DNA of 64,000 nt, from the NCBI GenBank assembly GCA_951406725.2, contig OX597838.1, forward strand, positions 8,246,001-8,310,000, in the 5' to 3' direction. Shown piece by piece: positions 2,559 to 60,044 of the stretch. Both the position numbers and the translations under genes were made by a program. Under the pieces are notes generated by a model. That model was given only the letters and a program-made list of their open reading frames with translations, was not told the origin of the DNA and ran no database searches. The first letter of the stretch is position 1, and each line of letters starts with the position of its first letter. Source of the DNA: Octopus vulgaris (Eukaryota).

Positions 2559-2649
2559 ATGTGGCTGAAGAGTGCTCTACATTTTAATAGTGATGTAATA
2601 CTTACATTCTTTAAATTAAATGAAGTAGCATGAAACGATTGTAGTACAC
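2559..2649 (+). ncRNA. Hammerhead ribozyme-like motif with long stem II (Penelope pLTR remnant, copy 1 of 3)
   Basis: gtgg-CTGAAGA-gtgctctac...gtagcat-GAAAC-gatt-GTA-gtacac; same island at 20259 (+) and 56190 (-). Confidence 0.6.
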
Positions 2650-2719
2650 TACCTTCGATATCCCTGTTGCTTATTTTGATTATATATATATATAGATAGA
2701 TAGGGAGATAGATAGACAA

Positions 2720-3045
2720 ATAGCCTCGAGCCAACCCTAGCCTTGTGAGTGGATTTGGTAGACGGAAACTGAAAGCAGCCCGTCGTATATATATATATAT
2801 ATATATATATATATATATATATTATTGTGTGTGTGTGTGTGTGTGTGTGTGTGTGTGTGTGTGTGTGTGTGTTAGTCACCCGATCATCGCTTGACGACCG
2901 ATGTTAGTATGTTCAGGTCCCCTAATTTTGCGAGCGATAGAATAAGTACTAGGTGTAAAAAGAATAAGTCTTGGGGGTCTACTTGTTCGACTAAAGGCGG
3001 TGCTGCAGCATGGCCGCAGTCAAATGACTGAAACAGGTCAAAGGT
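2720..3045 (+). mobile_element. SINE family A, 5'-truncated, with internal (TA)n(TG)n
   Basis: ccttgtgagtggatttggtagacggaaactgaaag ... ggcggtgctgcagcatggccgcagtcaaatgactgaaac. Confidence 0.85.
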
Positions 3046-4671
3046 TAACAGAATGTACTCATGTTCTCAGTTCCGTGTGTGTGTGTGCGTGTGTGTGCAG
3101 AGGCAGTGCGAGAAAGAAAGCGATGTGTGTATATATATGTATATATAGAGAGAGACTATCTGTATATATGCACGTATGTACGTATGCGTGTAAGTGGAGG
3201 ATGGGTGTGTGTAAGTATAGATGTATGTATGTGTGATATACATATGCATGTTGGTATATTGGTATGTTTAGAGAAACGTAAGAAGTATAAGCTAAATACA
3301 GATATATATATATATATATATATATATCTTTTGTATATATGATATATATATATATATTTGTATCGCACCACTGTTTTAGAATTGTATTCTTCAGTGACAA
3401 TCTCCGGCTAGATCCATATATATATATATATATATATATATATATATAGATAGATAGATAGATAGATAGATAGATAGATATAGATATAGATATAGATATA
3501 GATATAGATATATAGATAGATAGAGAGAGAGAAAGAGAGAGAGAAAGAGAGAGGAAGGGAGAGAGAGGGAGAGAGACAGTACTGCTATTTAGAAAGTTCA
3601 GCAGAGTGCGAAGTAATTCTATTTTTACGAGACGACTCTCGAAGCAAATAAAATTATGAATATTAGCGTTTCAATATTCCTTTTCTGGGAGCCGAACTCA
3701 CATCTGGAAATATGAGAGGTGCCCTAACATATATGTGTGTGTATGAGAGAAAGATTTTGATAGATGTTTATATATATATATATATATATATATATATATA
3801 TATATATATATATATATATATATATATATAGATAGATAGATAGATAGATAGATAGATAGATAGATAGATAGATAGATAGATAGATAGATAGATAGATAGA
3901 TACATGTATCTAAATATACACAGTGTGAAACAGATTAATGTTATACAAATATATACAAATATATTGTATACACACGTATACACGCACGCACACGCACACT
4001 CACATATATGCGTGTGTATACGTATATAATTGGATAACATTTACCCCTCCATCACTGTATATGTGTGTGCGTGTGTACGTGTGTGTGTGTGTGTGTGTAC
4101 AGAAATGCAGAGATGCGACCTTGTGTCCTTTGAAGTTGTATTTCTGACATATCGAAATACCAATTGTGTTGTTGGCTTTCACAAATAAAACAATATTTAA
4201 TCGCCTGATACTTTTTTCGCACTTCATAAACGTATGCATACATATATGCATACATTTATATAATTACATCTATATATATATATATATATATATATATAGT
4301 GGTATGCATACGCAGATGCACACGTATGTGTTTACATATACATACACAGACACAGACACACACATATATATATATATATATATGTATGTATACGGTTATA
4401 TGTAATACATTATCACACGTACATATACATGCATATATATATATATATATATATATATATATAGATAGATAGATAGATAGATAGATAGATAGATAGATAG
4501 ATAGATAGATAGATAGATAGATAGACAGATAGATAGATAGATTGATAGATAGATAGATACATACATACATACATACATATATACATACACACATACATAC
4601 ATACATACATACATACATACATACATACATACATACATACATACAATCATACATGCATATATACATACATA

Positions 4672-4830
4672 TACGAAGGGCTTCTGTCGGTTTCCGTCTA
4701 TCAAATCCACTCACAATGTTTTGGTCAGCTCTAGGCTGTAGCAGAAGACACTTGCCCAATGTGCCACGCTGTGGGACTGAACCCGGAACCATGTGGTTGG
4801 TAAGCAAACTTCTTACGGTTCAATCACACA
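4672..4830 (-). mobile_element. SINE family A 5' half
   Basis: Reverse complement of tRNA-like head and CORE-like (cttgcccaa) segment. Confidence 0.85.
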
Positions 4831-5914
4831 TACATATTTACATATTTATAGGTGCACGCATATATCTGTATGTGTAGACACAAGTACCCTGAAATATATC
4901 TGCATGGACGTACATACATAGATATGTGAGTGTACCTGCCCTCGACTTTTCTCACCCAGAATTGTTTTGAAGATTGACATGCTGTTATTTAAAGCTGTAA
5001 GTACTTCGAGATAAAAGTTCCAAAACACAAAAGAGGTTTCATATATCCGGGCGCACACATACATACAGATATACATAGACGCTTAAAACTGGTCTAAATG
5101 CATCACTTCATTTAAAATTTCAGCATTTAAATGTTTACAATATGCCAATATATCAAGTTTTTATATACATCGCACCTGCGCACGTGTGTGTGTAGATTGA
5201 TAGATATTTGTATGTATATCTATACAAATATATATATGTGTGTATATAACTGTGTGCATATATATATATACACATATATATATATATATATATTTTATAA
5301 AGGTACATACATTATGATGCCACCAAATGTATATATATGTATACACTAACTTGTACAGGACAAGAACGAGATAGATAGATAGATAGATAGATAGATAGAT
5401 AGATAGATAGATAGATAGATAGATAGATAGATAGATAGATAAATAGATAGATTTGCCAGGTGTGAATGTAAAATCCTAGAGCAGCTCCGTCCAACTCACT
5501 TCTTCACCAAAAACAGTATAGAAGGGAGACGCATGGCCCCTGTCTCTGGCTTCAGTAAACCAGTAAAGTATGAATATATATATATATATATATATATATA
5601 TATATATATATATATATATATATATATATATATATATATATATATTATATGTATATATATATATATATATTTATATATATGTATGCATGTATGTATATAC
5701 ACATAAGTAAAAAAGAAAAGGAGCTAATATATATATATAAATAAGGATACATACATACATACATACATACATACATACATACATACATACATACATACAT
5801 ATATATATATAATTAATTAAGATTCAGTGGAATTAGGTAGTTGAGTTGAGGCATCAGGTCAGTCGGGTAATATCCGCACACCACGAATTGGGGTGGAGAT
5901 AAAATCAAAATAAC

Positions 5915-6010
5915 AGGAGTTGTGCATTGGGGTTGTAACTATACATTATAAAGCTTACTAAACTTTATTTGCTTCATAATGTATAGTTTCAATCCCAGTG
6001 CACAGCTCCT
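5915..6010 (+). other. 40-bp imperfect hairpin with 16-nt loop (pre-miRNA-like or MITE remnant)
   Basis: 5915-5954 pairs with 5971-6010: 35 Watson-Crick pairs, 3 G-U, 2 mismatches on + strand. Confidence 0.7.
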
Positions 6011-58021: not shown

Positions 58022-58022
58022 A

Positions 58023-58405
58023 TCTCTCTCTATATAAACGGCAGTTTGTCTGTGCGTGTTTCTGTGTGTCTGTTTGCTTGTACCCTCACCCTGACCACGG
58101 CTTTCAACCGATTCTGATGAAACTTGACACACACATAGCCCAATGTCATAATTCAAAACTAACGCAGCGAAAATTTTGAAAAGTTCCCCCAGTTCGGAAA
58201 AAAATCAATAAATTCGACATGGGGTCGAGAATCAGAAACACAAACCGCAAACTGTCTAGGGGACGCAACTCTACCTTTTTTAACTAAAAAAAAAATTTAC
58301 CATAATTTTTTTCCATTTTTTTGCCAGTTTTTGGCTATAACTCTCTAAAAATGCTTTATAGTTATTTCCCTTACAAACCTGAGCAACGCCGGGCGATACT
58401 GCTAG
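58023..58405 (+). mobile_element. Non-autonomous Helitron
   Basis: A|TC 5' end (tctctctctatataaa), subterminal hairpin cctgagcaacgccggg, CTAG|T 3' end, no TSD. Confidence 0.8.
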
Positions 58406-59666
58406 TATATAAATAAATGTGATGTATATATAAATAAATGCTGATGTATATATAAATAAATTTATATATATATATATATATATATATATATATATATATA
58501 TATATATATATATATATATATATATATATATATATATATATATATATATATATATGCATACATACATACAGGTGTGTGTGTATGTATATATATATATATA
58601 TATATATATGTCATAAGTAACAGAGAAATAGATTGCGGAAATTTTATTTAACAAATCCGAATTTCTGGACAAATTGGAAGACTCTTTCATTGATTTATGT
58701 TGTTGTTCTCATTGTCTTCCATACTTTCTATAAAATTTTTTTAAATATTTACTTATATCTTCAAATTTCTAAGTTTTAAAAATTTCATATCTTTCATATT
58801 TTATTGTTAATACGTATCAATCCCTATATTTCATAAATATTGTCTCTAAATACTTTTAATTCTATTTTGTTATTGTTATTATTGTCATTATTATTATTAT
58901 TATTATTATTATTATTATTATTATTATTATTATTATTATTATTTTATTATTTTTTTTTTATTATTATTATTATTATTATTATTATTATTATTATTATTAT
59001 TATTATTATTATTATTATTATTATTATTATTATTATTATTATTATTTTATTATTTTTTTTTATTATTATTATTATTATTATTATTATTATTAATATTATT
59101 ATCATTATTATTATTATCTTTTTACTCTATATTTATGATCTTTTATTTTCTATATTTCTAGTAATAAATACCTCTTTTCTTTTATTGTACAAATAATATC
59201 AACTAGTTACATTTTAATTATATTACTAAAATTCCTTTCAATTTATGAGAAAATCCTCTAATTAATTTATATCCATTTTATCATTATCGGCTTCAATAAT
59301 CTTTTAAAATTTTCATCTTACGTGTCTATAATGTTACGTCGAGAATTTAGTATTTTACAAAGACTCTCTTTCACCTGAGAACGTAGCGTAAATTCTCCAT
59401 TATTTTGAAAGATTTTTTTTTTTTTGTATTTCACATTAATGCAGTCATGTAAGTAATTTACTCATTATTAAATATAATAATATAAATTATTTACATGCTT
59501 TTACGTGAAACAATTCGTCATGAAGTTGAATTTTCTGGCCGTTAAATAGAATTTCATCAAACTAGTTCTCTGACATCCTTGATTTATACATTCCTTATTT
59601 ATTCATTCTTTATCTGTATTTCATATCTTCTCTATAATAACAATTACTTAAACATTTTCTCGCACC

Positions 59667-59714
59667 GTCTCTGATGAAGGGACATATAAAATATCCCGGA
59701 AACAGCTGTAAGAC
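59667..59714 (+). ncRNA. Minimal type-I hammerhead ribozyme, intact core
   Basis: gtct-CTGATGA-agggacatataaaatatcccg-GAAAC-agct-GTA-agac: stem I gtct/agac, stem II ggga/tccc, palindromic stem III acagctgt, GUA site. Confidence 0.8.
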
Positions 59715-60006
59715 CTCTTTATAAATGTTCTGAAAACTATTCAAAACCTTAGATTTTTTTTATCTCATTCTGTTAATTTATATATATATATATATATATA
59801 TATATATATATATATATATATATATATATATATATATATATATATATATATATATTGTTTTAGGATTTGGTTTGCAAGATTCTTTATGCGAGTTCGTGTG
59901 TTGAAGTATATTCTGTTGTGTATGGGGAAAGTCATTTTCATTTTGTGCCTTATAATATAACACACTTACTGGTAAAATCTCCAGTTTTTTTTCTTATTTT
60001 TATTTT

Positions 60007-60044
60007 CCTACATTTTTCGTTGCGTCTTGCAACCTTTTCAATAG
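60007..60044 (-). ncRNA. Hammerhead-like motif with U3-A8 core, degenerate stem III
   Basis: Minus strand cta-TTGAAAA-g-gttgc-aagac-gcaac-GAAA-aatgtagg. Confidence 0.45.

Follow-up and report, generated by a model that had tools for sequence, protein, structure and literature searches.

Solo hammerhead motifs of Penelope-like elements (PLEs) were described by Cervera and De la Pena (2014; PMC4209133), who reported inactive monomers and slow dimers in vitro. Craig et al. (2021; PMC8557442) documented an octopus family, Hydra-1_Obim, that combines a hammerhead with a (TA)n target, and stated that the role of the hammerhead in PLEs is unclear; its sole direct test, in vitro, is that of Frangieh et al. 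(2024; PMC11167929). The main pattern reported here is already in print in the first two of these papers and has been known since 2014.

We analysed a 64-kb stretch of Octopus vulgaris DNA, hereafter the window. Its motifs resemble the minimal hammerheads of metazoan PLE pseudo-LTRs (PMC4209133) in type-I order, short stem I, an extra base after A9, palindromic stem III, the U3-A8 variant, the presence of many sequence families in one genome, a mostly single, dispersed occurrence and opposite-strand pairs, but several octopus families carry 40-60 nt inserts in stem II and palindromes of 8-10 nt. The accessible part of that paper makes no mention of family-fixed A13C, A6U or G3-C8 cores, and no octopus figures in two of its supplement files. 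We consider it very probable, together with the insertion model set out below, that the window motifs represent 3' ends, truncated on their 5' side, of about eight PLE families lodged in TA repeats (one of them a short retrozyme-like unit), each bearing its family's minimal type-I hammerhead. A damaged copy on its own is likely to be inactive.

Hammerhead copies in the window

All 13 sites listed in a sequence-only reading of the window are ends of genome-wide repeat families with minimal type-I hammerhead architecture. Profile models of these families, built with the window copies included, recovered 12 full-span copies, the partial copy that had been placed at 56190 on the minus strand (56192-56281) and an extra copy at 10647-10758. 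Every position proposed to hold the type-I pattern thus corresponds to a motif or to a remnant recognisable by family, yet the exact CTGANGA box supposed to mark them occurs in only 6 of the 12 (2565+, 9073-, 20263+, 44021-, 45457- and 59671+). Three others carry the U3-A8 compensated core TTGAAAA (13388-, 38040- and 60041-), which is fixed in their families, and the cores of the remaining three are broken (CTGGTGA at 9932-, CAAACGA at 31876-, and a copy cut inside the core at 30381+). Eight families were counted instead of about seven mutually unrelated ones, B and E both being putatively Hydra-type; four (A, C, D and E) have at least two copies, as proposed, and F joins them with the copy that had been missed.

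The 3' end of family A at 2494..2680 (+) has its core at 2565-2571, a long stem II, a predicted cut after 2642 and a broken first pair in stem I, whereas the copy at 20257..20389 (+; core 20263-20269, predicted cut after 20340) passes our strict descriptor; the partial copy at 56192..56281 (-) is devoid of the 5' core and has a mutated GAAA box. Family B is represented by a 3' end at 8988..9122 (-) with an intact core (9073-9067) and damaged stems III and I; an inverted piece of the family B tail adjoins it at about 9127-9175. Family C contributes an old, diverged copy with the broken CTGGTGA core (9861..9947, -) and the sole fully intact motif, within a 3' end at 59612..59778 (+; core 59671-59677, predicted cut after 59710), with an 8-nt palindromic stem III and (TA)38 after the copy. 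The family D2 3' end with its tail (13217..13390, -), assigned to a very young, putatively Neptune-type PLE, holds a U3-A8 motif at 13356-13388, is 5'-truncated 2 nt above the core and reads GCAA where GAAA is expected. Its older sister D1 (37902..38046, -; U3-A8 core 38040-38034) retains GAAA, with a C-C mismatch at the base of stem II and a stem I of 2 bp. Family E comprises a copy truncated inside the core that has lost the 5' arm of stem I (30381..30478, +) and a near-intact one with a single stem II mismatch (43867..44035, -; core 44021-44015). The old family F copy at 31813..31930 (-) has a decayed core (31876-31870) and an inverted arm (31884-31930) that forms a hairpin, and the newly recognised second copy (10647..10758, strand unassigned) consists of the 3' half and an inverted arm. 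Family G, a putative retrozyme-like unit of ~219 bp, lies at 45326..45536 (-), its core (45457-45451) intact and its stems I and II weakened, and the 3' end of family H, a PLE with a C-terminal GIY-YIG, occupies 59856..60161 (-; U3-A8 core 60041-60035, stem III damaged). Genome-wide, candidates numbered 767 for A, 1,187 for B, 2,352 for C, 1,734 for D1, 1,601 for E, 10 for F, 3,078 for G and 3,314 for H, and 17 D2 loci were 100% identical.

Coding elements and insertion anatomy

The proposal that the motifs are solo remnants of PLEs was assessed by following the families in the genome in search of RT/GIY-YIG sequence. Family B runs upstream into it at four loci (L098, L100, L103 and L109) and family H at five (L179, L182, L190, L193 and L195; Pfam GIY-YIG 1.2e-7); family E ends are followed by a Hydra-type N-terminus at L067 and L090, with 38% identity to the B ORF (tblastn, E 4e-43). 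D2 at L287 carries a 775-aa open RT-CX4CXXC-GIY-YIG frame (RVT_1 3.9e-10, GIY-YIG 9e-6). GIY-YIG support comes from Pfam for D2 and H, and from the motif plus tblastn for B and E. Remnant origin is supported for B, D, E and H, which join PLE coding sequence, but not for G, a retrozyme-like unit whose start is fixed. No ORF was encountered in the 1.5-kb flanks of A, C or F, nor in those of G, where none is expected, and walking family C through its tail led to a second fixed end and still no ORF. It is their insertion anatomy that marks A, C and F as putative PLEs.

As judged by comparing motifs by eye with the supplement of PMC8557442 rather than from a tree, B and E are probably Hydra-type and D2 Neptune-type. 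B and E share RT motifs, N-terminus and (TA)n target with Hydra-clade PLEs including Hydra-1_Obim, and their odd-length stem III palindromes are identical to those of Hydra-clade families (PMC8557442); the Hydra-1_oBim hammerhead differs from theirs, which makes B and E separate families. D2 resembles Neptune-type PLEs (C-terminal GIY-YIG, CX2-5CXXC linker) in having RT, CX4CXXC and GIY-YIG in one frame, its RT motifs being similar to those in the Neptune rows of that supplement, and departs from them in an upstream frame that overlaps at a T-TTT-TTA site, a 3' UTR of ~900 nt and the GCAA box.

Since the window holds 35 TA tracts per 10 kb, TA adjacency within it says little. Genome-wide, however, fixed 3' ends adjoin (TA)4+ in 108 of 174 copies against a background of 5.3%, an exact junction that bears out the suggested accumulation in TA microsatellites; the count covers families other than D1, whose 25 copies failed the end pattern and, by eye, mostly end in TA. 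Two alternative 3' ends occur in families A, C and D2, 5' ends are ragged, and inverted truncated partners lie beside copies. Among 61 unselected copies, none begins 2 nt or less from the predicted cut. Eight D matches that seemed to cluster with their starts exactly at the cut site turned out to be TA-repeat noise and were dropped.

The anatomy of window and genome copies agrees with an insertion mechanism that we infer from PMC11167929 and PMC8557442. The element's GIY-YIG nuclease would nick AT-rich DNA, and reverse transcription of an uncut RNA template would begin at either of two fixed sites, yielding a short or a tailed 3' end; it would mostly stop early or fold back, and what remains would be an end of 100-300 bp, in many cases accompanied by an inverted partner. 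Most stubs contain the hammerhead because it sits close to the 3' end of the element. In most source elements selection has maintained the motif, as core conservation and covariation show, probably as a slow ribozyme assisted by dimerisation or protein. AT-rich targets, two reverse-transcription start sites with an optional tail and an uncut template are likewise features of Poseidon of Anolis (PAc; PMC11167929).

The D2 lineage and the need for cleavage

In the youngest D lineage, loss of the GAAA box did not halt the spread. The D2 window copy lacks the GAAA box, and GCAA is found in 41 of 51 exact matches, this copy included, compared with nine GAAA sister copies; the two versions are ~2% apart, and an intact RT-GIY-YIG ORF is present elsewhere in the genome. 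Examination of 4.7 kb of the element revealed neither an alternative GAAA register nor a second hammerhead. This spread with GCAA would likely be an in vivo sign that self-cleavage is dispensable. In PAc, by comparison, engineered C3/G8 mutants were assayed in vitro (PMC11167929), whereas the core change of D2 is natural and has spread within a genome.

A possible but less favoured explanation is that cleavage of the D2 motif continues: the variant core may work together with the element's protein, or GAAA sister transcripts may provide the core in trans. D2 has indeed retained the NUH triplet and all three stems, the nine GAAA sisters have the same stems, and low activity is reported for some natural core variants (PMC3088659). 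That paper, however, reports drastic loss from changes at most core positions, its accessible part includes no A13 change among the variants, and GCAA copies, which are divided into several later subfamilies, outnumber GAAA copies 41 to 9.

Neighbouring DNA carries an abundant A6U family, G2, with a fixed core, and a natural G3-C8 family. We consider it an evenly balanced proposition that this genome amounts to a natural panel of PLE hammerhead mutants, in which a spreading Neptune-type family carried A13C through several further rounds of retrotransposition next to a fixed A6U neighbour, so that cleavage would be dispensable for mobility and the fold would have another role; the G3-C8 family also occurs in this genome, and intact motifs may number ~50,000. 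The literature covered, mostly outside subscription journals, contains no octopus hammerhead survey, A13C PLE family or natural G3-C8 family; Lunse et al. (PMC5785218) may describe further variants.

Alternative origins, core conservation and motif density

Most families could instead be non-autonomous retrozymes copied via small circular RNAs, an unlikely account that nonetheless fits family G: this ~219-bp non-coding unit has a fixed start, 13 of 20 unselected 5' ends lie 75-90 nt above the core, and a head-to-tail tandem occurs at 1 of 24 loci (L153), the others being mostly monomers. G is hence best described as a retrozyme-like unit, not a solo remnant, on the evidence of its copies; it resembles non-LTR retrozymes (PMC7229834; 10.64898/2026.07.22.740005) in its short non-coding unit, type-I hammerhead and coexisting tandems and monomers, and differs in the prevalence of monomers. 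The failure of A, C and F to reach an ORF, and the 2026 preprint (10.64898/2026.07.22.740005) that derives animal retrozymes from PLE ends, also favour this account. Against it, four other families (B, D, E and H) are the ends of coding elements, the ragged 5' ends of A and C reach 500-800 nt in some copies, and no head-to-tail units of A or C appeared among the loci examined.

It is highly improbable that intact solo copies cut host pre-mRNA, as had been suggested should the region be intronic, or were co-opted as regulators. Two copies pass the strict descriptor, but the other 10 of 12 fail it. The two family A copies at 2565+ and 20263+ lie on the same strand and have compatible stems, making one dimeric core possible in principle, yet this only same-strand, same-family pair is 17.7 kb apart. 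Private mutations are somewhat rarer in cores (0.9% vs 1.5%, p about 0.05), a slight depletion that strict neutral decay does not predict and that may stem from ragged flanks and from hits having been selected around the query. Pfam, run on 83 of the 122 window frames and on each of the 97 flank frames (264 kb), revealed no host exon, a search that would miss short exons; all it returned was a LINE RT and a mariner HTH below threshold. The candidate regulatory hammerheads belong to multi-copy families, the monomer and dimer behaviour reported in PMC4209133 speaks against activity, and the lizard PLE hammerhead needs its protein, with no RNA-seq ends found at its cut site (PMC11167929). The suggestion of pre-mRNA cleavage is accordingly not supported.

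Family-level consensus boxes (CUGANGA and GAAA, in type-I order) have C3-G8 in A, B, C, E and G and U3-A8 in D1 and H, and are partly present in F; 38 sequence clusters with different letters satisfy paired stems I and II, palindromic stem III and NUH altogether. The strict descriptor detected 2 window copies (20263+ and 59671+) against 0.0 in 60 local dinucleotide shuffles, and the relaxed one 3 against 0.1 in 20 shuffles. A descriptor scan of 1.71 Mb of octopus DNA yielded 97 C3-G8, 13 U3-A8 and 3 G3-C8 motifs and only 7 with a mismatched 3-8 pair, those shown being single mutants of the same families. Covariation is evident in the 3-8 pair (C-G, U-A or G-C) and, by inspection, in stem positions altered on both sides when D1 is compared with D2 or G with G2. 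Variants common to at least two copies number 3 at 72 core sites vs 116 at 601 other sites (p=5e-4); the substitution tests cover the families other than F (11 diverged rows). Core conservation and covariation among genomic copies are thereby confirmed, as is the excess over shuffled sequence.

Rfam returned no hammerhead among the best 150 of 868 matches over the whole window, where microsatellite matches dominate, nor did it recognise the best copy (C, 59671+); Hammerhead_1 (RF00163) scored 13.3 bits on E 44021-, below the 34-bit threshold. In dimer folding of A and C the palindrome pairs but the full hammerhead fold is not formed. The lack of a significant Rfam hammerhead and of an exact core at half of the sites could be invoked for an origin by chance in AT-rich sequence, but this reading is refuted by the shuffles, the core-site variant test and the 3-8 pair counts, with cores fixed in eight families, three Watson-Crick versions of that pair and the same architecture as published Hydra hammerheads.

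Near-intact motifs, scored blind to family, numbered 3 in the 64-kb window and 2 in its 200 kb of flanks, compared with 14 in a 400-kb genome-wide sample (2.0 in shuffles). With a near-intact density no higher than genome-wide, the window does not stand out, and the earlier figure of one motif per 5 kb stands only if decayed copies are counted. Extrapolation from the 400 kb suggests that the genome may hold about 50,000 intact motifs (range about 20,000-100,000), which exceeds the Xenopus figure of 9,000 given in 2014 with a different descriptor.

The main finding is an octopus survey added to a known pattern. The A6U and G3-C8 families would extend the list of natural hammerhead cores, and the GAAA and GCAA versions of D2 provide a ready matched pair for testing the need for cleavage.

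Hammerhead motifs and their density in the window

All 13 sites proposed as hammerheads in the sequence-only reading proved to be hammerhead-type motifs or remnants, and an additional hammerhead-family site was found at window 10647-10758. The claim that these islands carry CUGANGA held in part: exact CTGANGA occurs at 6 of 12 sites, the others having TTGAAAA (three) or a broken core (three). As anticipated, motif frequency exceeded that of shuffled sequence: just two motifs, 20263+ and 59671+, satisfied a strict descriptor, and 60 shuffles gave 0.0. A relaxed descriptor passed three motifs in the window (shuffles 0.1), 14 in a 400-kb genome sample made up of forty 10-kb stretches placed at round-number positions of other chromosomes (2.0 in shuffles), and two in 200 kb of window flanks; near-intact motifs are therefore no denser in the window. 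When decayed copies were included, the window's own families accounted for 14 loci in 64 kb versus 11 in 400 kb (E<1e-5), 8 of the 14 being present by construction and the remaining 6 comparing with about 1.8 expected. We infer that this excess fits the 3.5-fold surplus of TA tracts in the window, of which simple repeat makes up 37%. Seven strict C3-G8 hits in the 400-kb sample (shuffles 0.12) extrapolate, for a genome of 2.8 Gb, to about 49,000 motifs (Poisson range about 20,000-100,000).

Just two coding remnants turned up in the window, a decayed LINE with reverse transcriptase (RT) at 56589-58304 (-) (about 56590-58300; Pfam RVT_1) and a mariner-type HTH fragment at 48669-48968 (-), a sub-cut-off Pfam match. 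Near-perfect palindromes, possibly MITEs, lie at 37695-37878 and 5915-6010.

Core conservation and parent elements

Core conservation, junction anatomy and, for four families, linkage to Penelope-like elements (PLEs) were established from genomic copies. Own-genome searches returned 767 (family A), 1,187 (B), 2,352 (C), 1,734 (D1), 740 (D2), 1,601 (E), 10 (F), 3,078 (G) and 3,314 (H) first-look candidates, which are not copy numbers; the best 10-40 per family were scored and 11-30 retrieved. The type-I architecture was recovered in each family at family level. In families D and H the U3-A8 core is fixed, a compensated C3-G8 pair known from Schistosoma PLEs (PMC4209133) and from elsewhere (PMC3088659). 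Across 1.71 Mb of retrieved DNA, enriched for these families, the descriptor scored 97 cores of C3-G8 type, 13 of U3-A8 and 3 of G3-C8, plus 7 with a mismatch, grouped into 38 clusters. Variants found in two or more copies are scarce in the core, with 3 at 72 core sites vs 116 at 601 others (p=5e-4). We read this pattern as the mark of selection that would have acted on the source elements, their copies then decaying in a largely neutral way; however, private variants are also weakly rarer in the core (0.9% vs 1.5%, p about 0.05), which counts against neutral decay and may be a selection artefact.

The expected extension into PLE coding sequence was seen for B, D2, E and H, whereas no ORF was met in the 1.5-kb flanks of copies from families A, C and F. 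Family B continues into a Hydra-type RT and endonuclease, the protein closely resembling Hydra-1_Obim (PMC8557442 supplement), and the ends of family E lead on to a Hydra-type N-terminus; in stem III, both families carry palindromes identical to those of Hydra families listed in PMC8557442. Family H copies continue into a CX4CXXC linker and GIY-YIG, and D2 has a 775-aa open frame with RT, linker and GIY-YIG. Beside a family H element, on the opposite strand, a 441-aa open frame (L300:1910-3232 (+), outside the window) resembles a host WD-repeat gene. Family G, a ~219-bp unit with fixed start and one tandem array, is nearer to a non-LTR retrozyme.

The proposed TA association was supported, (TA)4 lying <=5 nt past the 3' end in 108 of 174 copies (D1 unscored) versus 5.3% of random positions. 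Such junctions occur in 4/18 copies of B and 6/23 of H, with tails or other AT-rich sequence there instead. Two alternative 3' ends in A, C and D2 and common inverted truncated partners match PLEs in PMC8557442 and PMC11167929. Family F copies (window 31813-31930 and 10647-10758; loci L143, L149, L151) form a ~130-bp hairpin whose fold-back junction falls at almost one place, directly above the core; this place may be especially prone to fold-back, or the hairpin may itself have been the form that spread.

Variant families and published work

Family G2, a relative of G (L214:4400-4530 (-); loci L303-L322; 2,208 first-look candidates), has the core CTGTAGA (A6U) in 17 of 20 retrieved copies and keeps A6 in none. 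Its 3' end is PLE-like, at TA, but no ORF was reached; about a dozen hits fell in the 400-kb sample and a 3' fragment lies at window 17478-17530. Another family (L368:1071-1260, L229, L256, L217, L093, L291, L356, L058, L035), with no copy in the window and four in the 400-kb sample, has a 7-bp stem I, a 6-nt palindrome and, in most of 11 core-spanning copies, GTGAACA, a natural G3-C8 swap. CCGA replaces CTGA (U4C) in sub-groups of G and C (L229, L241, L248, L210; L253), which could be a subfamily trait or a recurrent CpG-linked change. At least 12 further hammerhead families were noted (L223, L225, L228, L248, L261, L025, L045, L090, L123, L128, L137, L271, L288), many of them having a stem II extended by inserts of 40-60 nt and a stem III that is a perfect palindrome of 8-12 nt.

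The window hammerheads are real, and the general phenomenon is already known. PMC4209133 describes dispersed single minimal hammerheads of low activity, many families per genome, with a palindromic stem III, U3-A8 cores and an additional base following A9; (TA)n targets are reported in PMC8557442, as is a hammerhead-bearing Hydra family from an octopus. In PMC13282606, which gives a count of Penelope families recently active in an octopus, the main text says nothing of ribozymes. The comparison also covered PMC7229834, PMC3884650, PMC11014351, PMC6765202 and a 2026 preprint; in the literature searched, no report of A13C, A6U or natural G3-C8 families was found.

The young D2 family and hammerhead function

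The D2 window copy (13251-13390) is 100% identical to 16 further loci among the 44 matches listed, and two long copies share 97.8% identity across 4.4 kb. Among distinct GCAA copies reaching the endonuclease (duplicates merged), 6/9 keep it open to its own stop. An upstream frame overlaps the RT frame at T-TTT-TTA (L292:4749-7900 (+); L287:1548-4980 (-)), a run resembling a -1 ribosomal frameshift slippery site. Exact pattern counts were 41 for GCAA and, for GAAA, 9 in which the pair beneath the core is G-A and 1 in which it is G-C, the latter on the older D1 side; GAAA is the state in older relatives. In a comparison of 24 copies of alignable length, one informative column, the box itself aside, separated the closest GAAA copies from the first GCAA group. 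A 7-nt duplication is common to later GCAA copies, which fall into several groups marked by shared variants, indicating that GCAA elements acted repeatedly as sources. From a general statement in PMC3088659, we infer that A13C (GAAA to GCAA) would abolish cleavage. No second hammerhead was found in 4.7 kb of D2, a stretch without the element's 5' end; possibly, GAAA sister copies rescue GCAA cleavage in trans.

In PMC11167929, a PLE protein cuts AT-rich DNA, reverse transcription starts at two internal sites, the hammerhead cuts only in the presence of protein and hammerhead mutants still insert. Genomic copies agree with this work, since 0/61 (unselected for full length) start <=2 nt from the predicted cut. 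Insertion would follow the same scheme, ribozyme activity would depend on dimer or protein, and solo copies would be inert. That intact solo copies cleave host pre-mRNA, as had been suggested for an intronic setting, is unlikely; in PMC11167929 no RNA-seq reads end at the hammerhead cut site. The part most deserving follow-up is D2, naturally mutated yet still spreading.
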